Shown piece after piece: positions 4,175 through 38,669 of a DNA stretch of 64,000 nt. The first letter of the stretch is position 1; each line of letters starts with the position of its first letter. A program made the position numbers and the translations under genes. Under the pieces are notes generated by a model, which searched no databases, had not been told where the DNA came from, and saw only the letters and a program-made list of their open reading frames with translations. This stretch comes from a virus (Duplodnaviria > Caudoviricetes): IMG/VR virus record IMGVR_UViG_3300029288_007102, positions 1 through 64,000 of that record; one strand, 5' to 3'.

Positions 4175-4487
4175 GGAATGCAGAGATAGTGCGAATGGGT
4201 TGCTTAAATTATCTGTAGCGGTGCCAGGGCTTTCAAATTTAGAGTCAACAGTATTTAGGTGCTACGTTACGGATTACCTGGCGAAGGAGAAGGGGTTAAA
4301 GCTTATAACAAAGATCCCAGGCATTCCTGGTTTACCTATTTACGAGGACACAAAAGGAGCTTTAAGTAAAGTATCTTATGAAGAGTTTAAACTATTGATA
4401 GATAAATTCAAAAAGAAACTTCCTTTAAAAGAAGTGAAAGAAGGAGAAGTGATTCATATCACCTATTCTGAAGGAGCAACAGAATGA
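4143..4487 (+). CDS. Hypothetical protein
   Basis: AGGAG RBS, overlaps neighbours. Confidence 0.6.
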   Translation: MNELEKTKVYEECRDSANGLLKLSVAVPGLSNLESTVFRCYVTDYLAKEKGLKLITKIPGIPGLPIYEDTKGALSKVSYEEFKLLIDKFKKKLPLKEVKEGEVIHITYSEGATE

Positions 4488-5035
4488 ACTGGGAACGCAG
4501 GGCTGATGAAGGAAAACGCAGGACCAAAGACAAAATAGAGAAGACTGAGACTAAAGAAGTTAACAGTAAGTTTATGACTATGCGTCATATAGAAACAGTA
4601 AGGAATGGTTTGACTGCGGTAGTTAAAGAACTTTTAGATAGGGCGATAGATCATGACCAGACCAAGCTAGAGGAACCTGAGGTTGGATATTATGACCAGG
4701 CCACTCCTAAGCTTAGGGGGATAACATATGGATCGCCGGAATATAAAGCGATAATGAAAGAGATCAAGCCAGCCATAGATCATCACCAGGGAAACAACAG
4801 GCATCACCCGGAGTACTTTAAGAATGGTATAAAGGAAATGAACCTGGTAGACCTGATCGAGATGATCGTGGACTGGAAGGCCGCCTCAATGCGGCATGGC
4901 GATGGGGATATAATGAAGAGCATTAAGATGAACAAGGAGCGGTTTGGTTATTCGGACGAACTGGAGCAGATCTTCTTGAATACGGTCAAGTGGTTGGAGA
5001 CGACCAAGTTTAAGAATAAGGCAGAGGAGTCTTAG
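4484..5035 (+). CDS. DUF5662-like HD-type protein with MNWERRA leader
   Basis: HIETV...HDQTKL...HHQGNNRHHPEYF...MNLVDLIEMIVDW motif series. Confidence 0.75.
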   Translation: MNWERRADEGKRRTKDKIEKTETKEVNSKFMTMRHIETVRNGLTAVVKELLDRAIDHDQTKLEEPEVGYYDQATPKLRGITYGSPEYKAIMKEIKPAIDHHQGNNRHHPEYFKNGIKEMNLVDLIEMIVDWKAASMRHGDGDIMKSIKMNKERFGYSDELEQIFLNTVKWLETTKFKNKAEES

Positions 5036-5248
5036 GTGAATTGGAACAAAGGATTGTCTATGGAAAGATTTGAAGAGCTCCGGCAGGTTGCTAAAGAGGT
5101 AGCGAGGAAGCTGACAGGTAGGCATGAGGCTGAGGAGCTGGTTAAGGGTATAGAGAAAGCTCAGACCTTGATGGGTATAAAGCGGACATTTGAAGCCCGG
5201 GGATTTAAGACTGAGTTTGAAGATATGATGATAGAGTTCTTTAAATAG
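5036..5248 (+). CDS. W-leader small protein (MNWNKG)
   Basis: GTG start, GAGGAG RBS. Confidence 0.7.
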   Translation: MNWNKGLSMERFEELRQVAKEVARKLTGRHEAEELVKGIEKAQTLMGIKRTFEARGFKTEFEDMMIEFFK

Positions 5249-5256
5249 GAGATTAG

Positions 5257-5436
5257 ATGAAAAAGGAAATATATACCCAAGCCGAATGGAAGAAGATTGA
5301 AAAGTTGGCCGGGCAGAAAAGTGTTAAGTTCACGGACAAGCAAGCCAGGGTTTTCTTGCGAGAGATAGGAAACCTGAGGTTTGAGATCAAAGACCTGGAA
5401 GAAGAGATAGAGAGTATGGCTGGGGTGGATAAATAA
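5257..5436 (+). CDS. Small hypothetical protein (not in ORF track)
   Basis: AGGAG RBS; MKKEIYTQAEWKKIEKLA... Confidence 0.6.
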   Translation: MKKEIYTQAEWKKIEKLAGQKSVKFTDKQARVFLREIGNLRFEIKDLEEEIESMAGVDK

Positions 5437-5448
5437 TTAGGGGGCAAT

Positions 5449-6189
5449 ATGAACTGGGTAAAGGCTTCTGATGCAGAAGAGTTTCATAAGTTTCGCCAAT
5501 GGATTTATGATAGTTTTCCTTGGGTTAGTAAAAATGAAGCTTTGGCTGAGGCTATATGGCGAGCCCACAATAACAGGGAGATTGATGAGGCTCTCGTAAA
5601 GAATGCTCCAGATGAGAATGTTTCTGTTATGGATATGTTAAGGGGTTATAAAAATTGGTTAGGTGGTAAGGAAGCTAGTAGTGGAGGGGACAATATGAAC
5701 TGGGTAAAGGAAGCTGGAGATAAGGGGTTTGAGGAGCAGGTCCAACGCTTGGCCGAGGAAGGCTGGAAGTATTATGAGTCTCTGCCTACGGGAGTTTCCC
5801 CTGATGCTGACGACATTGCTAATTATGTAATGGATATGTTGATGGAAGATTTACCTGCATTTAAAACCGTTAAAGAGTATGATGATTTCTTTGATCGAAT
5901 ATATACCATAGTAACTGGCGGGAAAGACCTTGAAGAGAAAGAGGCTGCGGCAGGCGGGAAGAAAGGTGCCTGGTGTCCTAAGTGTGGGGAGCCTCTACAG
6001 GAAGAGACTGACGAAGACTTGAAGAAAGAATATCCATATGTTTGTTTAAATTGTGATGAAAACTTTTATGGGATCGAGACATTAGAAGATCCGGAGAAAG
6101 CCGAATACTTAAGGGGGAAAATGGAAGAGTGGAATTCTCTTAGTCCGGAAGAGAAAGATAAGAGAAGTAAAGAGTTCTTAAATCTTTAG
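5449..6189 (+). CDS. W-leader fusion protein (MNWVKAS; second leader MNWVKEA at 5695; C-terminal Zn ribbon)
   Basis: Internal GGAGGGG RBS + ATG at 5695; CPKC...CLNC. Confidence 0.8.
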   Translation: MNWVKASDAEEFHKFRQWIYDSFPWVSKNEALAEAIWRAHNNREIDEALVKNAPDENVSVMDMLRGYKNWLGGKEASSGGDNMNWVKEAGDKGFEEQVQRLAEEGWKYYESLPTGVSPDADDIANYVMDMLMEDLPAFKTVKEYDDFFDRIYTIVTGGKDLEEKEAAAGGKKGAWCPKCGEPLQEETDEDLKKEYPYVCLNCDENFYGIETLEDPEKAEYLRGKMEEWNSLSPEEKDKRSKEFLNL

Positions 6190-6199
6190 GGGGATATAT

Positions 6200-6424
6200 A
6201 TGAATTGGGTGAAGAAAGCTGATATTCCAAGGAAGAAATATAAGGTGGTAGTCAATGTCCAATTGGCTTATGTGGTAGAGGCCCCTGATGAGGCAATAGC
6301 CAAACAGACAGTAGAGAATGTAGAGCTGCCAAAGTATTATGTGGAAGACAGCCTCCAGTTTGAAGAGATCGTTCCAGCGACACCTGAAGAAGTGAATTTA
6401 TATTCTGTGGAAGAGTTTATATAG
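6200..6424 (+). CDS. W-leader small protein (MNWVKKA), VEA-x-x-E-x-x-A module
   Basis: Leader plus VVEAPDEAIAK. Confidence 0.75.
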   Translation: MNWVKKADIPRKKYKVVVNVQLAYVVEAPDEAIAKQTVENVELPKYYVEDSLQFEEIVPATPEEVNLYSVEEFI

Positions 6425-6433
6425 GAGGATTAA

Positions 6434-6745
6434 ATGGGTTGGGTAAAGAAGGCTGATGGGGGAAGCAATGCTGACATTAAAGATAATAAATATGTAGGCC
6501 GGGCCCCTGAGGGGTATGTGGTTGTAGCCTACGCCGATGAGATTGAGCAGAAGTTTATCGGCGGGGAAGAGTTGGCTGATACCGCCGATAAGGTAAGTCG
6601 TTCTGATTATGAGGACTGGGATGTTGTCAATGACATGGAGCCGAACATTGCGGTAGTGAAAGAATCTGATATGGCAGCCATAGAAGAGATGTATGAGAAG
6701 ATCAAAGAGCTTATTAATAAATCTGATGTTCAACCTGCGGACTAA
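6434..6745 (+). CDS. W-leader small protein (MGWVKKA)
   Basis: GGAGG RBS and leader. Confidence 0.75.
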   Translation: MGWVKKADGGSNADIKDNKYVGRAPEGYVVVAYADEIEQKFIGGEELADTADKVSRSDYEDWDVVNDMEPNIAVVKESDMAAIEEMYEKIKELINKSDVQPAD

Positions 6746-6754
6746 GGAGATTAT

Positions 6755-6952
6755 ATGAGTTGGACTAAAAAGGAAGCTGGAATAAAGGAAGCCCAATTGG
6801 CCGCCTTGGCATCGAGGATGCTTGGGGCTTTATATCAGGCTCTGCCTGTGCTTGGCGATCTGGTGCGGGAAGGTAATGACTGGGACGAATTAAATGAAGC
6901 CTATGAAGCGGTCAAAGGTGTGATCGCTGAGGCGGAGGGATCGATAAAATGA
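6755..6952 (+). CDS. W-leader helical hairpin protein, paralog 1 (MSWTKKEA)
   Basis: LY...L..L...AIA.AE pattern shared with next two ORFs. Confidence 0.75.
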   Translation: MSWTKKEAGIKEAQLAALASRMLGALYQALPVLGDLVREGNDWDELNEAYEAVKGVIAEAEGSIK

Positions 6953-7155
6953 ACTGGACAAAGACCGCTTTGCGTCCTGGAGAAGTAATGTCTGATGAGT
7001 TAAAAAAGGTAGCCCTTGTAGGAGAGTTATATACAGGTTGTGTCTATGCATTAAATGAGCTTGAGAATCCACACTCAAATAAAGAGAACCGGAAAGAAAC
7101 TATTGAATATTTAAAGGGTGCTATAGCTGACGCTAAAGCACAGGGGGTAGAATAG
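6949..7155 (+). CDS. W-leader helical hairpin protein, paralog 2 (MNWTKTA)
   Basis: LYTGCVYALNEL...AIADAKA. Confidence 0.75.
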   Translation: MNWTKTALRPGEVMSDELKKVALVGELYTGCVYALNELENPHSNKENRKETIEYLKGAIADAKAQGVE

Positions 7156-7364
7156 TGAACTGGATAAAGACGGCTATGGTACCATCTAAAGAGATTGATA
7201 CGCTTGTGGATGTTGCTACAGATTTATATAATGCTAGCGTTAGTGCCTTGAATGAGCTTAAAGGGGAATACCCCGGCCAACACCAGTCCTCAGATCACAA
7301 GGCTCTTACTATCCAAGGATTAGAGCAGGCTATCGCTAAGGCAGAAGAGGCATTCCACCAATGA
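7155..7364 (+). CDS. W-leader helical hairpin protein, paralog 3 (MNWIKTA)
   Basis: LYNASVSALNEL...AIAKAEE. Confidence 0.75.
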   Translation: MNWIKTAMVPSKEIDTLVDVATDLYNASVSALNELKGEYPGQHQSSDHKALTIQGLEQAIAKAEEAFHQ

Positions 7365-7660
7365 ACTGGACAAAGGCTAACCTTTCAACCACACCAATAG
7401 ACCTGGGCAAGATAGATCCGGCTAATGCGGATAAGGAGATGCTCAGGGTCTCTATTATCTCTGAGTTGGATGCTATCAACCTTTATGAACAGTTCGCTGA
7501 TATGACTGATGACCCAGAGATCAAGAAGGTTATGTTGTCGGTAGCCAAAGAAGAGAAGACCCATGTGTCGGAATTCAAGACTTTATTAAACAAATTAGAT
7601 CCGGAGCAAGTACAAGAAGACGCAGCCGGGAAGAAAGAAGTAGGGGGGGAACCTAAATGA
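7361..7660 (+). CDS. Encapsulin-cargo-type ferritin-like protein (Flp/EncFtn family) with MNWTKA leader
   Basis: LRVSIISELDAINLYEQ...VAKEEKTHVSEF..LL..LDPEQ; di-iron E and ExxH ligands. Confidence 0.85.
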   Translation: MNWTKANLSTTPIDLGKIDPANADKEMLRVSIISELDAINLYEQFADMTDDPEIKKVMLSVAKEEKTHVSEFKTLLNKLDPEQVQEDAAGKKEVGGEPK

Positions 7661-7887
7661 GCTGGATCAAGAAGGCGAAGGATTCTAATAAGAAAGAATA
7701 CCAGATGCCGTTTGTGTTTTATGGGAATGTGTTGGTTGAGGCAGAAGATGAAAGTGAGGCTCATGAGTTGGCTTCGGCAAATATAGATAAGATCTTCAAG
7801 TTAGCTCAGGATGCAGCTAAAGACCTTGACGGGACACTGAATGATTATGAAAGACAAGAGTTGGTAGACACCAGCACAGGGAAGTAG
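7657..7887 (+). CDS. W-leader small protein (MSWIKKA)
   Basis: Leader plus VEAEDESEAHELA. Confidence 0.75.
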   Translation: MSWIKKAKDSNKKEYQMPFVFYGNVLVEAEDESEAHELASANIDKIFKLAQDAAKDLDGTLNDYERQELVDTSTGK

Positions 7888-7893
7888 GGGTAT

Positions 7894-8061
7894 ATGACCT
7901 GGATAAAGAAGGCAGAGGAAGAAGGCGACCTAGGCTGGTACACAATAGATCTTCTAGGGTTGGATTCCCTAAATTTCTTTTTAATGAAAGACTACTCAGG
8001 CGAGACGGTAAAGATAGTTGTGGTAAGAGAAAAGAAGAAGGAATCAAATGAGACCACGTAA
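7894..8061 (+). CDS. W-leader small protein (MTWIKKA, 55 aa, not in ORF track)
   Basis: AGGGG RBS, ATG at 7894. Confidence 0.7.
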   Translation: MTWIKKAEEEGDLGWYTIDLLGLDSLNFFLMKDYSGETVKIVVVREKKKESNETT

Positions 8062-8422
8062 AGAATTCCAGGAAGTCGCATTTATTAATTGGACACACAA
8101 TAGATCTCCGGAAGGCAAGATTCTCTGGGGACCAGACAATCTCCCGGTACACTGGTGGGAGGCTCAAGTAGGCAGCTTTAATGGGATCTTGGTAATGAGG
8201 CAGAATCCGGAGAAGACCACTTACAATATAATCTATAAAGACAATTCCACTGACAGGTATTGCAACGAACCGCATTACGATAAAGCTTTGGTCACGGCCA
8301 TAGAGATGATTGAACGGAGAATGATTGAGTTGGGTGTAAAGTATAATGTGGAAGACGCACACGACCTTTGGTGGGATAGTAGGAATAAATTAAATGATGA
8401 AGTCAACAGGAGGGTAAGATGA
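8048..8422 (+). CDS. Hypothetical protein
   Basis: Packed ORF. Confidence 0.6.
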   Translation: MRPRKEFQEVAFINWTHNRSPEGKILWGPDNLPVHWWEAQVGSFNGILVMRQNPEKTTYNIIYKDNSTDRYCNEPHYDKALVTAIEMIERRMIELGVKYNVEDAHDLWWDSRNKLNDEVNRRVR

Positions 8423-8640
8423 AGTTGACGATAAACATTAGCAAAGAGAATATACAAAATATCCAAAGGATGTTAAAAGTTAATGGATATGAACCGCTTG
8501 ATCAATCAGCTCTACAAGAGATTTTAGAGATAAAGGCGGAAGAAATAATGGAGTTTCATTTTGATCATGAAGGGTTGATAGAGTTTTTTACTGAACTAGT
8601 TGATGCAGGAGAATTAGATAAGATTGGGGAGGAGAAATAA
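8419..8640 (+). CDS. Hypothetical protein, paralog of next ORF
   Basis: MKLTINISKE..I..M....GYEP. Confidence 0.7.
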   Translation: MKLTINISKENIQNIQRMLKVNGYEPLDQSALQEILEIKAEEIMEFHFDHEGLIEFFTELVDAGELDKIGEEK

Positions 8641-8877
8641 ATGGGCATGCAACTATCGATAAATGTTTCATCGGAGGCGGTCGCAGCGATCAAAGAAATG
8701 ATCAGGGAACAGGGATACGAACCCCCAAAAGAATCGGATCTCCGGGATGCTTTAGAAACTGACCTGGAAGGAAACTTTGATTACGAGATGCAGTTTGAGA
8801 AGGATGCTATCTTTACTTTTGTTGAATGGTTGATTAACAATTGGGAGTTGAAGAAGATTGAGAAGGGGGCAAAATAA
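8641..8877 (+). CDS. Hypothetical protein, paralog of previous ORF
   Basis: MQLSINVSSE..I..M....GYEP. Confidence 0.7.
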   Translation: MGMQLSINVSSEAVAAIKEMIREQGYEPPKESDLRDALETDLEGNFDYEMQFEKDAIFTFVEWLINNWELKKIEKGAK

Positions 8878-8878
8878 T

Positions 8879-9112
8879 ATGGCTTTAGGTGTATGGAAAA
8901 CTGAGTATACAAAACTTATGAGCTGTAGCGGTATGACGGCGGATTGGTTTAGCGACAGGTTAAATGATATGCATACCTTTTTTGTAGGCGATGAGAATGA
9001 CCGACAACTAGCCCTTAAAGAGGCTGATGCGATTAAGGATCAAGAGACTAAGGAAGAGGTTAGGGAGATCTTACAGAAAATGGAATTAGAGGTAGATTAC
9101 AGTTTCTTCTAG
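8879..9112 (+). CDS. Hypothetical protein
   Basis: ATG after GGGGG RBS. Confidence 0.6.
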   Translation: MALGVWKTEYTKLMSCSGMTADWFSDRLNDMHTFFVGDENDRQLALKEADAIKDQETKEEVREILQKMELEVDYSFF

Positions 9113-9121
9113 GGAGACGGG

Positions 9122-9337
9122 ATGCGGTTGGAATATAAGTTTGGTAAATGGGAATATGAGATCATTAAGAATGAGGGTTCCGGCCTTCAGGGGTATGGTT
9201 ATCGCTTGGGGGTATATCAAAACGATAAGAAGGTCTATGAGGGTGGCTCTTATGTGAGCGAGGCTGCGGCAATGAGTAAGGCAATAGATGTGATCCTGGA
9301 GGGAGAATTCGGGATAGATATGTCTTCTGATGAGTAA
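9122..9337 (+). CDS. Hypothetical protein
   Basis: GGGAG RBS. Confidence 0.6.
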   Translation: MRLEYKFGKWEYEIIKNEGSGLQGYGYRLGVYQNDKKVYEGGSYVSEAAAMSKAIDVILEGEFGIDMSSDE

Positions 9338-9416
9338 GCCGACAAGGTTCGCACATTGGAAGTGGTTGCGGGTAGATCCTAAGTGGCAGCAGATTAGGAG
9401 AGCGGAGGAGAAACAT

Positions 9417-9650
9417 ATGGGTTGGGTGAAGGAGGCGGCAAAGGAGCAAGAGGTTGTTGACATTGCCGTAATCTATGAAGTCTCGGTTGAGAAGTTCAAT
9501 AATTTTAACTGCGGTACCAATTGCCAATATCTGAGTGGCGGTAACGGTTCTTACTCTTGCACTTTGTTTGAGAAGCTCTTGGAGAATAGTCCTACTGAGA
9601 TCAAGAGAACTTCTGAATGTTTCAATGCTGAAAATCGGTGGAGGAAATAA
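9417..9650 (+). CDS. W-leader Cys-rich protein (MGWVKEA)
   Basis: GGAGG RBS before ATG 9417 inside track ORF 9330-9650; C..C....C...C. Confidence 0.7.
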   Translation: MGWVKEAAKEQEVVDIAVIYEVSVEKFNNFNCGTNCQYLSGGNGSYSCTLFEKLLENSPTEIKRTSECFNAENRWRK

Positions 9651-9877
9651 TGCGTTGGTTAAAGGCTGATAATATTAAGGCGGCTGAGGAACCTGTAAAC
9701 TTTGGAGACCTGAAGAATGGTGAGAAGTTCAATGCTACCTATGTAGGAGAGCGTCAAGAGGCTGTACTGGAAAAAGTGAATGATCATACTGGGGTATATG
9801 TTGAACCCTCTAAAGAAGGGATGCTCGGCAAGAGGCTTTTGGTGTATCCGGATTCTAAAGTATATAGGGTGGAATAA
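9650..9877 (+). CDS. W-leader small beta-barrel protein (MRWLKA)
   Basis: TAATG coupling; FGDLKNGEKF SH3/KOW-like start. Confidence 0.7.
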   Translation: MRWLKADNIKAAEEPVNFGDLKNGEKFNATYVGERQEAVLEKVNDHTGVYVEPSKEGMLGKRLLVYPDSKVYRVE

Positions 9878-9878
9878 T

Positions 9879-10025
9879 ATGGGAAAGAAGAAAAGGTTGA
9901 CTCTCTAGGACAAGGCAGTGCTAGCCTTGAAGGCTGCGGTCAGAGGGGTAGTCAGGCAGCACAAGAAGTCGGGCCGCCCTTTAATAATCTGGGAGAATGG
10001 GAAGGTAGTTTACAAGAAGGTATAG
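9879..10025 (+). CDS. Small basic protein (48 aa, not in ORF track)
   Basis: ALKAAVRGVVRQHKKSGRPLIIWENGKVV. Confidence 0.6.
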
Positions 10026-10034
10026 GGGGCACCT

Positions 10035-10493
10035 GTGAAAGAAATAGGGTGGATAAATCCTCAGGGCGAATTTCTTCCTTTACGTGAACCTCACATAGAT
10101 TGGTTGGGGGACAATATTGATTTTGTGAGGAAGGTAATTGGAGTGGGTCTGGAGAATGAATGTTATAAGCAGGGCGATGTCTTGATGTTGGCGATGATCA
10201 AGAGTGGTTGGATCCGGGTCTTTGCTGCTTACAATGGTGGGTTTGGTTTTGGCGTACATTCGGAAGAACAATTTGCTGCTGTTGAAGATCACATAAAAGG
10301 AAGTCCTCCGGGCGGCAAGGTTTGGGTTAATATGCCAAATCGCCTTGAAGATATTTTTACTACTGTAGGGGAGATAGAGAAGTGTGGGCTTAGATTCCTT
10401 TTGGAAGAGGGAAAGAATTCTCAACCTTTTGAACACAGGTTTGAGTGGAGGGAAGATGGGCTGGCTTCGGCAGGCAACACAAGAGATCTTTAA
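10035..10493 (+). CDS. Hypothetical phage protein
   Basis: GWINPQG...H...GWIRV motif typical of small phage domains. Confidence 0.65.
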   Translation: MKEIGWINPQGEFLPLREPHIDWLGDNIDFVRKVIGVGLENECYKQGDVLMLAMIKSGWIRVFAAYNGGFGFGVHSEEQFAAVEDHIKGSPPGGKVWVNMPNRLEDIFTTVGEIEKCGLRFLLEEGKNSQPFEHRFEWREDGLASAGNTRDL

Positions 10494-10845
10494 ATTAGAG
10501 ACTGAGACAAATCTGGATGCTTTGATCGGCGACAAGCCCTACGAAGGTGGCGGTGAGTATGCCGACTTGAAAGATTATATGGCAAGAGTGAAGGGGTTGG
10601 TAGGAGAGATTGTGTATATGACCCCGGATGAATACTTAGAGAAGATACCTTATCAAGAACAGACAAAGAGTAGCATTGAATATATGAAGGCAAAGGTAGA
10701 TCGGGGAGAGAAACTTCCAATGCCCTGGCTGGACTACTCTGGCGGTAGGTTGAGCCAAGAGGGAAGAAACAGAGCGTACCTGGCCAAGGAATTGGGGATC
10801 CCCGAGATCCCAGTGTTGGTAGTAAACAAACCTAAGGGGAGATAA
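10456..10845 (+). CDS. ParB/Srx-like domain protein with MGWLRQA leader
   Basis: MTPDEYL...PWLDY...QEGRNRAYLAKELGIPEIPV; GGAGGG RBS before ATG 10456. Confidence 0.7.
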   Translation: MGWLRQATQEIFKLETETNLDALIGDKPYEGGGEYADLKDYMARVKGLVGEIVYMTPDEYLEKIPYQEQTKSSIEYMKAKVDRGEKLPMPWLDYSGGRLSQEGRNRAYLAKELGIPEIPVLVVNKPKGR

Positions 10846-10846
10846 T

Positions 10847-11131
10847 ATGAATTGGTTGCGGGAAGCTGAGAAACCTAAGTATACACAAGTGAAGACCTTT
10901 GAGGAAGTGAAGAAATTGTCCAACCGGGATGGCGGGGCTGATTTTATTATTCAGTTAAACTTTGGCGGGAAGGCGAGTTATCATTTAGCTTGGGATGGTG
11001 AGTTGATGTATGTCCTCAGCCTGGTGGATGACTCAGAGCAGGAGTTGACCCCGGAAGAATTTATGGATCCGGGGCAGACCAACTTCAAAGAGGCAATGGA
11101 AAAGGGTGCCTTGTACCACGAACAATTCTAA
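10847..11131 (+). CDS. W-leader small protein (MNWLREA)
   Basis: GGGAG RBS and leader. Confidence 0.75.
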   Translation: MNWLREAEKPKYTQVKTFEEVKKLSNRDGGADFIIQLNFGGKASYHLAWDGELMYVLSLVDDSEQELTPEEFMDPGQTNFKEAMEKGALYHEQF

Positions 11132-11141
11132 GGGGGAATAG

Positions 11142-11300
11142 ATGACTTGGATTAAGGAAGCTAAGGTTGGTAAGGCGGAAGACGATAAGATAATCAAGCT
11201 TCTGGATATGCTGGATGGTTATGGGATTGTCTTTACGGATGATGATATGGTAAGGAACAGGTTGCAAGAGATTGATTTGGAGTGGCTCTTTGGTAAATAG
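11142..11300 (+). CDS. W-leader small protein (MTWIKEA, 52 aa, not in ORF track)
   Basis: AGGGGG RBS and leader. Confidence 0.7.
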   Translation: MTWIKEAKVGKAEDDKIIKLLDMLDGYGIVFTDDDMVRNRLQEIDLEWLFGK

Positions 11301-11812: not shown

Positions 11813-11884
11813 GCCCTTGTAGCTCAGTGGTAGAGCGGCAGTTTTGTAAACTGCGGGTCGGGAGTTCAAATCTCTTCGGGGGCT
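11813..11884 (+). tRNA. tRNA-Thr (UGU)
   Basis: Acceptor GCCCTTG/CGGGGGC, D-arm GCTC-AGTGGTA-GAGC, anticodon stem GCAGT-TT TGT AA-ACTGC, T-loop TTCAAAT; CCA not encoded. Confidence 0.95.
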
Positions 11885-20542: not shown

Positions 20543-20752
20543 ATGAATTGGCACAGAAAGGCACAGACTCCGGCTCCGGCCTCTGGTGGATTTGGTGGAC
20601 TGGATGAGGTGACCAAGTACAACATTAACCAGAAGGGGCTTGGGTATTACTGCCCAGATTGCATGAAAGATGTCCCGCCCAATGTGAGGTGTCCTGATTG
20701 CGGCAAGGTGCTTAAGAAAAACAAATGGATTAATAGGAGACGAGATGGCTGA
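20543..20752 (+). CDS. W-leader Zn-ribbon protein (MNWHRKAQ)
   Basis: CPDC...CPDC. Confidence 0.75.
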   Translation: MNWHRKAQTPAPASGGFGGLDEVTKYNINQKGLGYYCPDCMKDVPPNVRCPDCGKVLKKNKWINRRRDG

Positions 20753-22034: not shown

Positions 22035-22325
22035 ATGGAGTGGACAAAGTTGGCCAGGAAGAGTGAGAAGATAAGTAGAGAGAAAGCTGATTTCTATCTA
22101 CACCATTGGGACGAGTTCCTCCGCAAGTATGGGAAGGATGCCGACCTTATGTGTAAAGAGTTCCAGTTTGTTGAGATCAACGATGAAGAAGAAGAGAAAG
22201 ATACCCTCAATCGTGGAGATAAGATGTGGGTGGCTGTATACCCGGGGGACTTGGAGAGCCACACTGAGCCGGATGGTAGCTTGGATCCTGAGTGGAAGAC
22301 TTTTGAAGTTTGGTATGGGAGGTAG
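22035..22325 (+). CDS. W-leader small protein (MEWTKLA)
   Basis: AGGAG RBS and leader. Confidence 0.7.
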   Translation: MEWTKLARKSEKISREKADFYLHHWDEFLRKYGKDADLMCKEFQFVEINDEEEEKDTLNRGDKMWVAVYPGDLESHTEPDGSLDPEWKTFEVWYGR

Positions 22326-23110: not shown

Positions 23111-23482
23111 ATGGATTGGTTGAAACCTGAATTGAAAACGAAGAAGGAAAAGGATCCAGTCAAAGAAATAGTTACAAAGTATATTAAGGGGAGAGATAGA
23201 TTGTCGGCAGAGAAGAATTTAGAATACAGGACTCTGAGAGATCGGCTTTTGAGTTTGCATGGTGGTAGGGTAAGTTTTAAAAAGGAACAAGGGAGATTGA
23301 TTAAGCTTTTTATGGATGCGGTCTCTAAGATTAAGGAAGCAATACTCCGGGGGCATTCAAAAGATAAGGCTTTGGGGTATGTGCAAGAAACCTTAAAGTT
23401 TGAAGAGCATATGACAAGAAGGTTAGTAGAACTAATGAATCAAAACTTGGACTTTTTCCAACAAAGAGGGATGTGGAGCTAA
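23111..23482 (+). CDS. Hypothetical protein (MDWLK start)
   Basis: GGAGG RBS. Confidence 0.65.
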   Translation: MDWLKPELKTKKEKDPVKEIVTKYIKGRDRLSAEKNLEYRTLRDRLLSLHGGRVSFKKEQGRLIKLFMDAVSKIKEAILRGHSKDKALGYVQETLKFEEHMTRRLVELMNQNLDFFQQRGMWS

Positions 23483-28635: not shown

Positions 28636-30297
28636 ATGGCAGAGAATAGAGATGCGAAGTTTTTAAGGAAAGCATATAAGGCTTTAGAGGAAACGGAACC
28701 GCTTATATATCGGGCCAGTTTGCATAACGATAAAGATCCTGATAAAAAATCAGATCTCGTTAAGCAGGCTCAGATGATGGTTTGGGAGGGCGGATCCTCT
28801 CAGGCACCTAGAGTTCCTTTGCTTTATATGGATCCGCTTATGGATCCTATTCTCTTTCTCTATCCCCGGGGAGAATCTAGGGAATCGGTAAAACAGATTA
28901 ATGTCAGATTAAGACATTATTATGAAACCCATAGATTAGTGGGGAATATAATCGATTTACATAGCGAATTTCCTTTATCTGACTTCACCCTAAGAACTAA
29001 AGATCCTGCTATTACAAAATATTACAACGACTTCAAGGATGATATAGGGTTATTGCAGGATATGATTTGTTGGTTGAAAGACTACTGGCTATTAGGTGAA
29101 GCGATTGTTTATGGCAATTGGGATGTAATCAATCGTAAATGGAGCTATTTTAATCAATATCCGCCTGAATCCATTGAGATCCGTTCTACTTATAGTGGTG
29201 GTGGGGCAATTTATCTGCTCTACCCAGATGATGATCCGGAATTAAAACGTATTTGTATGAGTTCTGATCCAATTGATGAGGCAATCCGGAAACAGATGCC
29301 AGGAGAGTTCGTGGAAGCGGTCAAGGCTGGCAAGCCAATGGTTTTGGATAACTCCCGGGTAATGCATTTTGCAAGAAAGCCGAATAAATATGCCAGGCGT
29401 GGTGTATCTATTGTTCGCCGGGCGATTAAAGATTTGATGTATGAAGACAAATTGAGGAATTTGCAACTGACGTTTGTGGATCGTCATATGTTCCCAATTA
29501 AAGTGTTTAAATTGGGAGATAAAGGTTTGGGCTGGATACCGTCAGCTAAACATTTTACCAAATTCCAGTCTCTGTTAGGGCAAGCGGCTAACGATCCTGA
29601 TTTTAATATTATTTATCACTTTGGGTTAGAAATTGATTATGTAGGAACTAAAGATAAGATTGCAAATTTAATCCCTGAATTTGAGTTTGTGGAAAAGGCA
29701 ATTCTTTTAGCCTTATTTGCAAACGATACAGTTGTTCATGGAGATATGACAACTTATGCTGGGCAAGCTATTTCTATGAGGGTGTTACTTAATAGGTATT
29801 TGACAGTGCGTACTCAGTTGGAGAAAGATGTTCGAAATAAGATCTTCTTGCCAATGGCCAGGGAGATGGACTTTAAAGACAAAGAGGGTCGGTATATTCT
29901 TCCTGAGTTTATGTGGGAAAAGACGAATCTGTTATCCAATACAACGCAGCAGGACTTTGTTTTATCTATGCGGGATAAAGGGGATTTGCCGATGGCGTTG
30001 GTGTGTGACATCTTTGGTTGGGACAAAAAGATTATACAGGAACAGATTAAAGAAGAGATGGGTACGGTATTTGATCCTGTTTGGAGAGAAATCTACAAGT
30101 CTATGTCTGAAGATGAATTCTATCAAGAGCAGATCTTTAAAGGCAAGAAGTATGATGAATGGCAGAGTAAAGAAAAGGAAGAGAAGGCCGAGAAGCTGCA
30201 GACGACTACCCCCCCAACAGAAGGTAAAGGGGTAGAGAAAGAAAAGAAGACTGAATCTGAGGAGCCTCCGTTCTTGGGTGGTAAGGAGATAACCTGA
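28636..30297 (+). CDS. Portal protein
   Basis: IIDLHSEFPLS, LLGEAIVY, VMHFARK...RGVSIVRRA; size and position before protease and capsid. Confidence 0.88.
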   Translation: MAENRDAKFLRKAYKALEETEPLIYRASLHNDKDPDKKSDLVKQAQMMVWEGGSSQAPRVPLLYMDPLMDPILFLYPRGESRESVKQINVRLRHYYETHRLVGNIIDLHSEFPLSDFTLRTKDPAITKYYNDFKDDIGLLQDMICWLKDYWLLGEAIVYGNWDVINRKWSYFNQYPPESIEIRSTYSGGGAIYLLYPDDDPELKRICMSSDPIDEAIRKQMPGEFVEAVKAGKPMVLDNSRVMHFARKPNKYARRGVSIVRRAIKDLMYEDKLRNLQLTFVDRHMFPIKVFKLGDKGLGWIPSAKHFTKFQSLLGQAANDPDFNIIYHFGLEIDYVGTKDKIANLIPEFEFVEKAILLALFANDTVVHGDMTTYAGQAISMRVLLNRYLTVRTQLEKDVRNKIFLPMAREMDFKDKEGRYILPEFMWEKTNLLSNTTQQDFVLSMRDKGDLPMALVCDIFGWDKKIIQEQIKEEMGTVFDPVWREIYKSMSEDEFYQEQIFKGKKYDEWQSKEKEEKAEKLQTTTPPTEGKGVEKEKKTESEEPPFLGGKEIT

Positions 30298-30539
30298 TGA
30301 GAAAGTATCTCTCTTCCCGTACACGCTATACAGAATCTAACCAAGAGATTGAGATGTTTTCTGGGAAGATAAAAAGTTGCATAGTCGGACTTAAAAGGGT
30401 TGCTGAAGAGCTTGATCTGGATCTTATGACCATTAGCCATTTAGGTCGGGTAGAAGAAGCCTTAGAATCCTTTACCCGGGAAGCTAGTGGGGAAATTGAG
30501 CAGGCAGAAGAGGAGAGGAAGAAAAATGAAATGGCTTAA
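30297..30539 (+). CDS. Hypothetical protein
   Basis: TGATG coupling to portal. Confidence 0.55.
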   Translation: MRKYLSSRTRYTESNQEIEMFSGKIKSCIVGLKRVAEELDLDLMTISHLGRVEEALESFTREASGEIEQAEEERKKNEMA

Positions 30540-30816
30540 AGCGGAGGAAGCCTATAAAACTGATGAGGAAATCGCTCGTCAATTTGAGGGATATAAGATT
30601 AGAAATATAGAGTTCAATCCTAGTGGAGAGAGTGGAACGCTTGAGATAGAATTCCCGAATGCTGGGGAGTCGGTTGCAGGCGGCCAGGATTATGTGTTGG
30701 AACATTTTATCATCTACAACACAGGACAGATTGCTTTTGATAATTGGTACCCGGAACAGACATATGACGAATTTGTGAATTATATTAGGAACAAACAGAA
30801 TGAAAAAAAGAGGTGA
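30526..30816 (+). CDS. W-leader small protein (MKWLKAEEA)
   Basis: GAGG RBS before ATG 30526. Confidence 0.7.
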   Translation: MKWLKAEEAYKTDEEIARQFEGYKIRNIEFNPSGESGTLEIEFPNAGESVAGGQDYVLEHFIIYNTGQIAFDNWYPEQTYDEFVNYIRNKQNEKKR

Positions 30817-31016
30817 GAGATATGAGTTTCTTCAAAACCGGAGCAGTTGAAAAAATTATTGGTATATTTAAATCTGGCAAGAAAGATGAGGTTGCTGCAA
30901 ACAAACCTATTATTTGCAGTAAGTGTGGCAGGTTGATAGATCTCAAGACTAAGGTTGCTAGTATAAAATGTTTGTGTGGGAACGAGATTGTTCTGCCAAA
31001 GGAGACTAAAAACTAA
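30813..31016 (+). CDS. Small Zn-ribbon protein
   Basis: CSKC...CLCG. Confidence 0.6.
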   Translation: MRDMSFFKTGAVEKIIGIFKSGKKDEVAANKPIICSKCGRLIDLKTKVASIKCLCGNEIVLPKETKN

Positions 31017-31756: not shown

Positions 31757-34033
31757 ATGTTTATCAGATTAGGGACGTTGGAGAAGGTAAGTGTTCTCCA
31801 GGGGTTTAAGCGAGAGGCGAGTTTGGCATCAGAATGGAGAGACATTGTTGCAGGAACGTCTTATGTGCAACAAAATGATGTCTTTGATTATGATACTGAA
31901 AATTTCTTGTATTTTAGGTGCCGGGCAGTAAGCCCTGGCCCTAATGGGAATGGCGACTTCTTTCCGCCTCCAGAAATAAAAAAAGCTTACAAGACTTTTA
32001 TAGGTAAACCATTTTGTATTGAGCATGATTCAGATAGTCCTGATAAAGCACGAGGGGTTATTTTAGATGCCAGTCTACATGAAGATCCTGATGATTTTTA
32101 TGTAGAATGCTTGGTGGCGGTAGATAAGGTGCGGTACCCAGACATTGCTCGGAATTTGGAGTTAGGGATTCTTAATTCTGTTTCGATGGGCTGTGTGTGT
32201 TCGGAAGCTGAATGTTCTATTTGTCATAATGTGGCCAGGGACACTGAGCATCTGTGCCCACATATGAATAAAGATGACCTTCGTTATGTGAAAGGTAGAT
32301 CTAATGATGCGTATGAAATTAACCGGGGGATTAGTTATGTTGAGTTGTCAGGCGTAAGGAATCCTGCGTTTAACGATACAAAGATTTTTGAAGTAATGGC
32401 ATCACAATTGAACGACAAACTAAAGAACGAGCTGAAGAGATATGCGAGTTCTAAACGGGAGGGGGCGGAGGAAAATATGGCAGTGGGATCTGAGAGTGTC
32501 AGGGCTAGTCAGAATTCAGGTACTTCAAAGTTACGCAAATTGGTGAATAGTATTTCAGGTATTAAGGAAAAACCTGTACATGGGGATTTCGATTTAGGAG
32601 AAGGGAATATTTTAAGGTCCTTTAGGGCAGCGGATAATAGGATCTTAATGCAACTGTTTAAACAAGGGCAAGCTGAAAATGTGTTTATTGAGCCTATCTA
32701 TGGAGACTTATCGATAGAACAAAAGGCGAAGAAATATAAGGCGGCTCTAAATTTAGGGGGAATAGAAGGTTCTATTAAAACAGAGAAGGAAATCAAGAAG
32801 GAAGTAGCGACAAAAACGAAAGAGACCTGCAAAAAAGCAGAAAAGGAGGAAGTGAATATGTTCAATTTAAGTTATGTAGAAGGTACTTCGCTGGATACCA
32901 GTTATTTCCTGGCTAAAGAGGGGGATAAAGAACATAAGGTAAAAGCTAGTGAAGTTGTTCCAAAAGACATACAAGATTCGATCTTGGCGGGAAAGACTGA
33001 TACCGTCATCTCTCCAGAACAAGCTGTTGAACAGATTGTTAAGGAATGTGGTAGTACCCTGCAAGGGTTCCAGAAGTGGTCCTTGATGGAGAAGGTGAAG
33101 AATATCCGTCGGGCAAAGATGAAAAAGGTAGAGAAGAAAGAAGAGAAAAAGGAAGCGTCTGAAAAGCCAGTGGAAAAAGAAGTTGTCAAGGCGGCAGAAG
33201 ATCGGAAAGCTAAGATTAAGGCTATAATTGAGGCCGCTCGGGCTCGTAGGGCAGCCAAGGTAGCAGAGGCTCCTGTTGTAGAATCTGCCGAAACACCTAA
33301 GGTAGAGCCTGTAGAAAAAGTTGTTGAGGCTCCAGTCCAAGCTTCTGCTCTTACCCCAGAACGGAGAAAAGAGCTTGCTGCTCGGGCACATAAGAGAGCA
33401 ATCATTGCTCGGATGAAATTGAGGAAGAAAGCAAATTACATGAACATAGAAGATTCCTCAATTCGTTCAGAAGAGAAAGAAGAAAAAGGAGATCTCAATC
33501 TTCAGGGCACAGATCAAGTGGCCCAGAACGTTAAAGAGCAGAAGGTCGGTATGACTGGTCCTACTGGAAATGCGGGAGGCAAAGTAAAGGAGTATTACAA
33601 TAAGCTCGGCAGTCCAAGCGGTGGTACCCCGACACCTGGCGACAATTGGGCAATGAAGACTTCGGCTCTTGAGAAAGAGGTTGAAGATTTAAAAAAGAAA
33701 ACCGCTGCTTTAGAAGCAGAGAACACCCTGTTGACCAAGAAAGCGGCAATGAAAGAGAAGGCTGAGATGATTGATCAAATCATTTCTGGCTTGGATTTCG
33801 AGAGTGAAGAAGAGAAGAGTAAGACAATTGAAGAGTTGGCCTCTATGGATGCTGAGAAATTGCAGACCACTTTACAATTGAAGGCAAAGACTGCAAGTAA
33901 AGCTACTCCGATGCCGAAGACTGCCGGATTAGAAGCGGTCAATAATATTCCTCCTGTGTTTGCTGCTCAGGATTCACGCAGCACAGTAGATAAACTGTCG
34001 GATATTATGGAGAACGAAGTTCCGAAGATATAG
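31757..34033 (+). CDS. Prohead (maturation) protease fused to scaffolding domain
   Basis: NGNGDFF, IEHD, SVSMGC, ELSGVRNPA; Zn-finger CSIC..LCPH; long K/E/A-rich helical C-terminus. Confidence 0.85.
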   Translation: MFIRLGTLEKVSVLQGFKREASLASEWRDIVAGTSYVQQNDVFDYDTENFLYFRCRAVSPGPNGNGDFFPPPEIKKAYKTFIGKPFCIEHDSDSPDKARGVILDASLHEDPDDFYVECLVAVDKVRYPDIARNLELGILNSVSMGCVCSEAECSICHNVARDTEHLCPHMNKDDLRYVKGRSNDAYEINRGISYVELSGVRNPAFNDTKIFEVMASQLNDKLKNELKRYASSKREGAEENMAVGSESVRASQNSGTSKLRKLVNSISGIKEKPVHGDFDLGEGNILRSFRAADNRILMQLFKQGQAENVFIEPIYGDLSIEQKAKKYKAALNLGGIEGSIKTEKEIKKEVATKTKETCKKAEKEEVNMFNLSYVEGTSLDTSYFLAKEGDKEHKVKASEVVPKDIQDSILAGKTDTVISPEQAVEQIVKECGSTLQGFQKWSLMEKVKNIRRAKMKKVEKKEEKKEASEKPVEKEVVKAAEDRKAKIKAIIEAARARRAAKVAEAPVVESAETPKVEPVEKVVEAPVQASALTPERRKELAARAHKRAIIARMKLRKKANYMNIEDSSIRSEEKEEKGDLNLQGTDQVAQNVKEQKVGMTGPTGNAGGKVKEYYNKLGSPSGGTPTPGDNWAMKTSALEKEVEDLKKKTAALEAENTLLTKKAAMKEKAEMIDQIISGLDFESEEEKSKTIEELASMDAEKLQTTLQLKAKTASKATPMPKTAGLEAVNNIPPVFAAQDSRSTVDKLSDIMENEVPKI

Positions 34034-34581: not shown

Positions 34582-34671
34582 TAGAAACACCAGCACTAAA
34601 ACATTGAAAACGAATTGAATGATATTTGAATTGACTGAAAAAGACTCAACTTTGAAAAAATGGAGATCACA

Positions 34672-35610
34672 ATGTCTTTTTCACCCCGTGAACAAGAACT
34701 GGTCGGCTTGATTAAGAGTCTTGCCGACAAAACGGGTGGATTCACGAAACAGGCATCTTCTGAGGAAGTTCCGATCCAGGTCAAGGAACGGATGTTCTCA
34801 GAGATCTGGCAGGGTCCAAATAGGCTCTTCCGTGTAGCCCAGATGTTTCAGAAGCCTTTAAAAAAGCTGAATGATTACTATGGTGTTGCTCGGAAAGCTA
34901 TATTTGTAGACACAATGCCAGCAGGTGAGATCCCAGCGTATGACAAAGATATCCAAGAATTCGCCAGTGTAAAAATTGCTATGAAGGGTGCTCCTCCGCA
35001 AGTGGAGCCGAACATTCTGCGTGTACAATTCCCGACATGGGATTTGGCCATCACAGAACGAGTTCGGTATTCGGATATTCAGATTGTGCGTTATCCGGCT
35101 TTCGACCGGGCAAAAGAACGGTGTGCAATTGCTAATGCGATTGCGGAAGATACCGAATTCTTTGCTCTGTTGCTGGCTGCTACCACAGTCGGTCCGAATG
35201 TAAACTTAACAGCATCTTCTCTAACGAGAAGCATCCTGGCGGATGCGTTTGGAACAATCTTAGCGAACCAGCTGACCGTTGGTTCGGTCATACTTAATCC
35301 TTGGGATGCGAAAGACATCCTAAAGTGGACTGCAACTGATCTTGATCAAGTCACATTGTACAACGTGACCACTCAAGGTCTGTTAGGGCAGATCTGGAAT
35401 GCGAAGTTCTTAGTTTCGACTAGGATCCCTCGTGGTTCAGTATATGTCTGTGCAGTTCCGGAGAAATTGGGAGTATTACCTGAAAGAAAGCCTGTGGAAG
35501 TCAAAGTATTTGACAATTCACCTGGTTTGGAATTCTTGATGACGGCTTGGAGCCACATCGGTATGGGCATACACAACACCTACGGTGTTGTTCGTATTGA
35601 CATTACCTAA
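34672..35610 (+). CDS. Major capsid protein (HK97 fold)
   Basis: DYYGVARKAIFVD..P.G..P.YDKD, AIAEDTEFF, ILNP.D..DI; strong codon bias; followed by hairpin. Confidence 0.88.
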   Translation: MSFSPREQELVGLIKSLADKTGGFTKQASSEEVPIQVKERMFSEIWQGPNRLFRVAQMFQKPLKKLNDYYGVARKAIFVDTMPAGEIPAYDKDIQEFASVKIAMKGAPPQVEPNILRVQFPTWDLAITERVRYSDIQIVRYPAFDRAKERCAIANAIAEDTEFFALLLAATTVGPNVNLTASSLTRSILADAFGTILANQLTVGSVILNPWDAKDILKWTATDLDQVTLYNVTTQGLLGQIWNAKFLVSTRIPRGSVYVCAVPEKLGVLPERKPVEVKVFDNSPGLEFLMTAWSHIGMGIHNTYGVVRIDIT

Positions 35611-37763: not shown

Positions 37764-38669
37764 ATGTCAGAGAAATGTAAGATTTGCAATTTGGTAAATG
37801 TGTCCCCGAGTCATTTGAATAAAACCCACAAGATTTCTCTTTATGAATATAGAGAAAAATATAGTCCTGATTTTGTGTGGGATACAGGCAATAAAGGGCA
37901 TACCCCCTGGAATAAAGGAAAAGCTCTTAGGGGCGACCCGAAGTATAAAAATATGGGGTATCATGGCGTTCACTCCCCTGAGCACACAGCAAAGTTAATG
38001 GCTGGTAGAGCCAAGTGGGCGGAAGAACACCCTGAAGAAGTTGCTAAATATAGCGTTGAAAAGCAACTTAAGAAGTATATGAAGAAGCATCCAGATTTCT
38101 ATGAGGTGCGTAGCAAGAACCATCCATTAGACGGAAAGAATCACCCTATGTATGGCAAGAAGCATTCAGAAGCAACCAGGGTAAAATTAAGTAAGGCGAC
38201 CACTTCTTATATGAACGCTCACCCTGAATTTGCCAAAGAGAAAGTTCGCCAGATGAATGCAGGGAATCCTCCTGGTCATCACTCTCGTGTCCTTAAAGAA
38301 TTATATAAGAATCCAGAATGGCATGATAGAGTTCTTTCTCCCCAAATGCACACTCGCAAGATGTCTTCTTATGAGCAGAGGGTATCGGATCTCATTAAGA
38401 AATACAAACTGCCTTATAAGTTTGTAGGCAACGGAGAAGTATGGATAGGCCAGAAGAACCCTGACTTTATTAACACTAATGGGGAGAAGAAGATAATTGA
38501 GGTTTATTCTGAGTATCATGTAGGTTTTTGGAAAGACAAGGATTATGAATCTAAACGGAGCAAGCTCTTTGCCAAGTATGGTTTCCAGACAATCTTTCTG
38601 ACTGAGCAAGATTTATTTGCCAGGAATTGGGAAAGTATCTGTTCCTTTAAGTTGGGGGTACAGATATGA
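37764..38669 (+). CDS. Free-standing homing-type endonuclease (NUMOD3 + Vsr/PD-(D/E)xK-like domain)
   Basis: HPMYGKKHSEATRVKLS, PWNKG, NPDFIN...IIEVYSEYH. Confidence 0.75.
   Translation: MSEKCKICNLVNVSPSHLNKTHKISLYEYREKYSPDFVWDTGNKGHTPWNKGKALRGDPKYKNMGYHGVHSPEHTAKLMAGRAKWAEEHPEEVAKYSVEKQLKKYMKKHPDFYEVRSKNHPLDGKNHPMYGKKHSEATRVKLSKATTSYMNAHPEFAKEKVRQMNAGNPPGHHSRVLKELYKNPEWHDRVLSPQMHTRKMSSYEQRVSDLIKKYKLPYKFVGNGEVWIGQKNPDFINTNGEKKIIEVYSEYHVGFWKDKDYESKRSKLFAKYGFQTIFLTEQDLFARNWESICSFKLGVQI

Follow-up and report, generated by a model that had tools for sequence, protein, structure and literature searches.

An EncFtn-like gene in a phage G-related virus

The DNA considered here (the window) is a stretch of 64,000 nucleotides from the start of a 183-kb record, IMGVR_UViG_3300029288_007102, which IMG/VR labels a provirus. 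Its head genes appear related to those of phage G, since the capsid protein matches gp27 (6wkk) at 2e-43 and the portal matches gp14 at 3e-57, and beyond the window all ORFs of at least 200 aa lie on the plus strand. The replication genes are of bacterial type (a fusion of DnaE-type Pol III alpha with uracil-DNA glycosylase, DnaB and a 5'-3' exonuclease), which argues that the virus is a large bacteriophage. An archaeal host had been considered since the first labelled EncFtn homologues were archaeal, but it was rejected both because of these bacterial-type replication genes and because the EncFtn-like family is spread over bacteria and archaea. The polymerase gene lies past the window (131390-135115 of the genome), its PHP, NTPase, finger and HHH regions being followed by the C-terminal uracil-DNA glycosylase domain. 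Virus Rctr197k is a distant relative by its portal, with an uninformative annotation. Within the window there is also a tRNA-Thr gene (TGT anticodon) at 11813-11884, and a protein with a NUMOD3 motif, likely a homing endonuclease, is encoded inside the structural module at 37764-38669; in one relative a gene with a faint NUMOD3 match lies directly 3' of the EncFtn gene.

The EncFtn-like gene (Table 1) shares ATGA overlaps with the genes on either side and is thereby translationally coupled to them, its ATG overlapping the stop codon of the upstream gene and its own stop overlapping the next ATG. The first-pass annotation had called the product an encapsulin-type ferritin, and this identity holds up, the protein being of the EncFtn type. 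The protein passes the Pfam EncFtn-like family (PF22277; 2.4e-9, 37.3 bits against a cut-off of 27) and also matches Pfam Rubrerythrin (3.7e-10). In a PDB sequence search the best match was P. furiosus EncFtn (5n5e, 7.2e-20), and matches were also found to the P. furiosus virus-like particle, an EncFtn-encapsulin fusion (2e0z, 9.5e-19), and to M. xanthus EncC/EncB. An AF2 model (pLDDT 89) has helices at residues 20-48, 52-79 and 81-95, and Foldseek ranks 5n5e first (TM 0.76), with R. rubrum 5da5 at TM 0.69. The protein falls below the cut-offs of the NCBIfam encapsulin-ferritin families (73.7 bits against 90 for EncB_fam and 57.1 against 125 for TIGR04535).

In R. rubrum EncFtn the di-iron ligands are Glu32, Tyr39, Glu62 and His65 (PMC5012862), with which E35, Y42, E65 and H68 of the phage protein were equated by the offset of the PDB match. 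No homologue examined (alignments A1 and A4) departs from E35, Y42, E64/E65 and H68. The gene product is predicted to be an EncFtn-like half-ferritin with all di-iron residues kept, and it is probably active as a di-iron, ferroxidase-type enzyme. Its C-terminus ends in AAGKKEVGGEPK and shows, by eye, no tail of the encapsulin targeting-peptide type.

Table 1. Features of the window, with their positions, strand and basis
Feature	Position	Strand	Basis
Array of 17 small M-x-W-x-[KR]-(x)-A genes, EncFtn-like gene included	4484..11300	+	
EncFtn-like gene, 99 aa	7361..7660	+	open ORF; ATGA overlaps with both neighbours
Leader codons M-N-W-T-K-A	7361..7378	+	alignments A1, A4; 63/63 cellular homologues without leader
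N7 codon, in place of cellular initiator Met	7379-7381	+	alignments A1, A4
EncFtn core L8-V94	7382..7642	+	PDB match, alignments, AF2 model
Predicted di-iron residues	E35 7463-7465; Y42 7484-7486; E65 7553-7555; H68 7562-7564	+	alignments A1, A4
Leader gene MNWHRKA, zinc ribbon, head region	20543..20752	+	
Leader gene MEWTKLA, head region	22035..22325	+	
Leader gene MDWLKPE, head region	23111..23482	+	
Portal protein; motif K-F-L-R-K-A-Y, residues 8-14 (28660-28674)	28636..30297	+	
Leader gene MKWLKAE, just 3' of portal gene	30526..30816	+	
758-aa protein read as assemblin-fold prohead protease + C-terminal region	31757..34033	+	fold search
Protease motif G-F-K-R-E-A-S, residues 16-22	31805-31819	+	
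Major capsid protein (phage G gp27 family), 33-aa N-terminal extension	34660..35610	+	
Capsid motif F28-A32, extension end G-F-T-K-Q-A-S	34741-34755	+	

The junction of leader and ferritin domain, and viral relatives

The ferritin domain is preceded by the short leader MNWTKA, as had been noted at first pass, and the earlier placing of the graft point was accurate: in alignment A1 the boundary falls exactly after K-A(-N), and similarity to cellular proteins begins at L8 (NLSTTP versus MLSxxP). It follows from this exact alignment of starts that MNWTKA plus Asn stands where cellular proteins have their initiator Met. Among database proteins the five closest, 72-96% identical, share the start MNW[TLI]K[AES].-LSTTPIDL; the 70 or so that come after them are 84-163 aa long, mostly 91-97, and those in A1 start M-L-S-x-x-P-I-D-L. 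Gene starts read in 63 GTDB genomes of bacteria and archaea are M-[LMF]-[SA]-x-x-P in 63 of 63 and, in keeping with the earlier suggestion of a phage-specific extension, the MNW start is absent from every one of these cellular homologues. In the tree, six leader-bearing viral proteins form one clade (support 100/99) on a long stem, which points to one acquisition and one graft of EncFtn in this phage group; these proteins have diverged to 72% identity with the copy in the window and have kept the leader. Residues 1-10 have a mean pLDDT of 55 in the AF2 model, a prediction that makes the leader a tail without fixed structure. On a contig of 1169 bp (P0042) an EncFtn homologue carries another, longer extension (MKTKKVIMETTNCWLQE|LLSVNP), with W-L-x-E before the junction.

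More distant viral copies came from a profile scan of IMG/VR, in which EncFtn-like domains were recognized on 27 contigs. With the single protein as query, IMG/VR gave no close relatives, and none of 50,697 GenBank phage records had an EncFtn homologue by tblastn. One of the 27 contigs (L109:5980-8634) encodes in a single ORF of 884 aa a complete Phage_portal_3 domain (8e-77), then an EncFtn-like domain and then topoisomerase IB, and in another (L113) the EncFtn-like domain is C-terminal to the portal domain. Fusion to the portal is an accepted indicator of a domain placed inside the virion (Iyer et al. 2017, PMC5512222), and these two cases recall the portal/MuF-fused effector domains and polyvalent proteins described in that paper, from which the EncFtn of the window differs in being free-standing with a leader; the words ferritin, four-helix and diiron do not occur in the text of PMC5512222. 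In L117 and L122 the EncFtn-like domain is found within NUDIX-containing multidomain proteins. Five fragments (L102, L103, L104, L110 and L116) encode free-standing EncFtn with other N-terminal extensions at the same junction (MKKYEEFKKMNE|LLATTP, MKTTLNFDEFLNE|TMSTIP and MKNLKSYNE|LMSNVP), each ending in x-N-E. These extensions resemble the capsid targeting sequence (CTS) of T4, seen at the starts of IPII/IPIII (MKTYQEFIAE) and IPI (MKTFKEF); leaders such as MKKYEEF...NE are like the IPII/IPIII start, the T4-like form occurring in L102-L104, and genes next to EncFtn in the fragments with CTS-like leaders start MKYLKTFE. The di-iron residues are kept in all these viral domains. Runs of small genes starting M-[KR]-Y-[LI]-K-x-F-E, which again resembles the IPI start MKTFKEF, are present in L102, L103, L104 and L110 (IMG/VR fragments of an estimated 1-10% completeness) and might represent, in very large phages, a library of CTS-like cargo; searches of the fragments with CTS-like leaders for Pfam Gp23 and Peptidase_S77 did not confirm their T4-likeness.

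A leader peptide shared by unrelated genes, and its likeness to a head-protein motif

The leader of the EncFtn-like protein is one instance of a gene start, M-x-W-x-[KR]-(x)-A, that heads 21 genes, all 21 on the plus strand and none on the minus strand, when by our own estimate chance would give fewer than one gene in about 317. Seventeen of the 21 make up the small-gene array upstream of the terminase gene (4484-11300; the tRNA-Thr gene mentioned above lies about 500 bp 3' of its end), four lie between the terminase and capsid genes, and there is no leader gene in the remaining 120 kb of the 183-kb record. The leader also heads a DUF5662 protein at 4484 and, in a relative (L003), a His_Phos_1 phosphatase, the Pfam match beginning after the leader in both, and related metagenomic contigs have the same leader on about ten genes. 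Judged from these natural grafts on EncFtn, DUF5662 and His_Phos_1 domains, it appears to behave as a portable tag. A degenerate DNA pattern of the leader run against IMG/VR gave single, probably chance matches and no further arrays. Some ORFs depart from the simple layout. That at 5449-6189 (246 aa) contains two leaders, MNWVKAS at its start and MNWVKEAG at residue 83 (nucleotide 5695), the latter with its own GGAGGGG ribosome-binding site, and in L003 the counterpart of its second part is a separate gene of 177 aa; it is either a fused pair, in effect a mini-polyprotein carrying a leader site in its interior, or a case of nested starts. In the ORFs at 9330-9650 and 10384-10845 the leader start is internal.

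A conserved gene start might be a feature of the nucleic acid, namely a translation-initiation element or a recombination micro-homology by which cassettes are shuffled, with the peptide as a by-product. The tight packing of the genes with ATGA overlaps, the hyperplastic look of the array and the roughly 14 of 20 bases common to leader starts would all suit such a feature, which we nevertheless consider very improbable: third codon positions (6, 12 and 21) vary freely, Lys and Arg are exchanged via the unrelated codons AAR, CGN and AGA, position 4 varies between V, I, T and L, and the peptide is kept across viral EncFtn copies as divergent as 72% identity. Given the free third positions, the Lys/Arg swaps and the variable fourth residue, the leader is constrained as a peptide and not as DNA or RNA. 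Scans of 1-20 kb for sigma-70 promoters and terminators gave counts at shuffle level and pointed to no temporal class for the array.

A similar motif is found in the head proteins. The 33-aa extension of the capsid protein is absent from phage G gp27 and ends FTKQA|S exactly where gp27 begins (the phage G capsid structure was set aside as a guide to the mature N-terminus, gp27 being without the extension). In length and in sequence alike, the extension is hypervariable among 26 relatives, apart from its terminal motif, phi-x-[KR]-x-A-[SAG], in which A32 is at least 90% conserved and of which QFVKKAD, KFVKEAS, GFKKEAS and GLQRQAG are examples. The leader core W-[VITL]-[KR]-x-A resembles this motif, leaders such as MNWVKKAD and MNWVKEAG coming close to QFVKKAD and KFVKEAS. 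The two are similar and not identical, because Trp is invariant in the leaders and never occupies that position in 25 capsid motifs; in the EncFtn leader (W-T-K-A-N) the spacing is one residue shorter, which makes P1 uncertain in this protein. Near their N-termini the portal has AKFLRKAY and the protease QGFKREAS, and MRKVAGIYKEAG and MADIKKEAG are the starts of two large proteins encoded upstream of the portal. When a PSSM built from the capsid motifs of other phages only was run over all 317 ORFs, five of its top seven matches fell in the head module (30.3-35.6 kb), and a strict regular expression gave about nine times more matches per residue in the first 40 residues than in the rest of the proteome, the motif analysis being partly post hoc. 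Leader genes are also found next to head genes elsewhere, six of them lying inside the head module just 3' of the capsid gene in L132, and others flanking genes that by size and position are putative portal and protease genes in L134.

Other sequence features of these regions were recorded alongside. PSSM matches occur at residues 324 (LKKQAS) and 1589 of a 1642-aa protein (39258-44186), whose N-terminus, MKSTASMLDWGKQGLDPAVF, resembles that of a leader-bearing protein of 453 aa, MKWLDKQSSILDYGKPGLDEAVW, encoded by L132:14295-15656. A second N-terminal motif, MF[KEI]R.G[ST].E.I, starts the protease and a small upstream zinc-ribbon protein in relatives (L132:6611; L133:6576 and 6747; L134:6508 and 7181) and occurs in the window at 30822-31016 and 31757, as MSFFKTGAVEKIIG and MFIRLGTLEKVSVL. 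A TGAAT-type motif upstream of some head genes proved non-specific.

The enzyme that might act on the shared motif is the 758-aa protein of the head module. Sequence and profile searches against the PDB did not identify it, and it was recognized as a protease by the fold search alone: with its N-domain, Foldseek places herpesvirus proteases at the top (probability ~1) and gives T4 gp21 a TMt of 0.59. The fold domain spans approximately residues 50-215 and has a Zn-ribbon insert, with conserved Cys/Cys/Cys/His (C153, C156, C167 and H169); His90 and Ser143 are invariant, and 5 of 33 homologues have weak Peptidase_S78 matches. The family is large: at E<=0.001 it comprises 2585 representatives, whose proteins range from 241 to 2462 aa. 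In the C-terminal region, of about 500 aa, the stretch 630-684 weakly matches 5fiy (E 0.08), a chain that we take to be a coiled coil. The protein can be read as an assemblin-fold protease fused to a scaffold-like C-terminal region. Herpesvirus assemblins follow the cleavage consensus (V/L/I)-x-A|S. The layout of the phage protein is that of herpesvirus pUL26, in which an N-terminal protease of the same fold is joined to a long C-terminal region (PMC4498786), and PrV assemblin formed in vivo has Ala225 as its last residue (PMC4498786), so that its release cut follows Ala, in parallel with the putative A|S site of the phage capsid extension. The Zn-ribbon insert of the phage enzyme is a difference from pUL26, and its cleavage specificity and the scaffold role of its C-terminal region are deduced from the comparison.

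Capsid-cargo tag, cytoplasmic enzyme or captured encapsulin cargo

The closest known parallel to the leader is the CTS of T4 internal proteins, a diverse set united only by this sequence, ten N-terminal residues of which suffice to package foreign proteins (PMC3012670, PMC9026906). Like the CTS of IPI, IPII, IPIII and Alt, the leader is a short N-terminal peptide on small, fast-evolving proteins that are otherwise unrelated; it can be carried over to foreign proteins, here through natural grafts; and some of its genes are located away from the head operon (PMC3012670, PMC9026906). The CTS terminates in a site for the prohead protease, of a kind shared with the capsid protein, the equivalent here being the shared motif as a putative site. 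The differences concern the sequences, which are unrelated (MKTYQEFIAE against M-N-W-x-K-x-A), the putative P1 residue (Ala here, Glu in T4), the length (6-8 residues here, 10 in T4) and the lineage, which is phage G-like and not Straboviridae.

These comparisons outline a model in which the ancestor of a small group of phage G-related large phages would have acquired a shell-less EncFtn once, its initiator Met being replaced by the 6-7-residue leader M-N-W-x-K-(x)-A common to some 20 unrelated small phage proteins. The W-[VITL]-[KR]-x-A core of the leader copies the motif at the end of the capsid extension, and phi-x-[KR]-x-A-[SAG] would be where the assemblin-fold prohead protease recognizes and cuts its substrates. 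If the leader is recognized and probably cut by the protease that processes the capsid, tagged proteins would be procapsid cargo, entering the procapsid core and being trimmed there much as T4 internal proteins are by way of their CTS. EncFtn would then be cargo inside the head, where it might guard packaged DNA against Fe(II)/peroxide chemistry, or it might be delivered with the DNA on infection, both of which are speculation. We put the chances at about even that the leader is a cargo tag of the T4-CTS kind with a new sequence and that EncFtn is addressed to the capsid. The link between leader and head assembly is plausible, resting as it does on the shared motif, the leader genes of head modules, the portal fusions and the CTS-like leaders, and to that extent the earlier proposal that the ferritin is re-addressed to a viral capsid has gained indirect support; packaging into the virion, like cleavage of the leader and any physiological role, is what we infer from it. 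The motif of the capsid extension could, on the other hand, be structural rather than a cleavage site, and early host-takeover genes, too, could be expected in a place like that of the array, ahead of the terminase gene.

The provenance that the first-pass annotation gave the gene, a nanocompartment cargo captured from the host and redirected from an encapsulin shell to a viral HK97-fold shell, is not supported. The fold and the closest solved structures are associated with encapsulins (the P. furiosus EncFtn-encapsulin fusion and M. xanthus EncB/EncC), and the viral capsid protein does have an HK97-type fold. Moreover, the phage protein shares with the EncFtn/Flp proteins of family 1 encapsulins (R. 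rubrum, H. ochraceum, the P. furiosus fusion and M. xanthus EncB/C) the two-helix half-ferritin fold, the E/ExxH/Y di-iron site and a similar size. It differs from them, however, in having the N-terminal phage leader instead of a C-terminal localisation peptide, as judged by eye, and in the absence of a shell gene, which was not found in the phage record (as Linocin_M18) and is missing from 39 of the 42 genomes that hold its closest cellular homologues. In a search whose positive controls matched, Linocin_M18 was present in the other three, at about 250 kb from the EncFtn-like gene in the one genome where positions were compared. The closest cellular clade, 56-67% identical to the EncFtn of the window, thus appears from gene content to be a stand-alone, shell-less branch: no shell gene is listed among the neighbours at five cellular loci, and the cellular homologues in A1 have no targeting-peptide-like tail by eye. 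Since, in addition, the protein scores below EncB_fam and TIGR04535 and the tree picks out no donor lineage among bacteria and archaea (the family is scattered across anaerobic members of both), capture of an encapsulin cargo seems improbable to us.

A stronger competitor, although we rate it as rather unlikely, is that EncFtn is an auxiliary gene for iron handling or oxidative stress in the cytoplasm, with a leader unrelated to the capsid that serves, for example, as an N-terminal degron or as a handle for a partner. The MNW leader resembles the ClpX N-motif, 'polar-T/phi-phi-basic-phi'; such motifs are not known to contain an invariant Trp, which weighs against the degron variant. We know of no shared leader or capsid link reported for the Dps and Mn-catalase genes of phages. 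Such genes (Gratiaviridae, Lactobacillus phages) are nonetheless documented auxiliary genes and a precedent for a cytoplasmic role, encoding oxidative-stress enzymes of the ferritin superfamily in phages of anaerobes (PMC8008677), although the 12-mer Dps and the half-ferritin EncFtn are of different families. Next to the nearest cellular genes lie those of desulfoferrodoxin, which points to an oxidative-stress context, and housekeeping genes such as those of Arg-tRNA synthetase and ribosomal L15e, and most leader genes do belong to a small-gene array outside the core head genes. A cytoplasmic role would, however, leave unexplained the agreement of the leader with the conserved end of the capsid extension and the clustering of the motif in head-module proteins, as well as the fusion of EncFtn domains to portals in other phages and the presence of leader genes inside the head module of relatives.

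The viral copies found in other contigs raise a broader possibility, which we consider unlikely: that several unrelated lineages of large phages place an EncFtn-type ferroxidase in HK97-fold heads, by an MNW leader, a CTS-like leader or portal fusion, the capsid thereby becoming an iron-oxidising, DNA-protecting compartment. If this is true, the phage head would be a natural functional counterpart of the encapsulin-EncFtn nanocompartment and a living example for the evolutionary continuum proposed between procapsids and encapsulins (PMC13669383). As head cargo, EncFtn would to our knowledge be the first natural encapsulin-type enzyme known to work inside a virus capsid, a possibility that a 2026 paper put forward as a hypothesis, with cargo-related proteins co-assembled in procapsids (PMC13669383). 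For the family itself, the finding that most EncFtn-like proteins nearest to that of the window are shell-less bears on how its members are annotated. Finally, should the leader prove to be a tag for capsid targeting and cleavage, it would represent a second natural system of the CTS type, unrelated in sequence to that of T4, and would provide a library of about 20 cargo proteins with a tag of 6-7 residues usable for loading foreign proteins into the heads of large phages.
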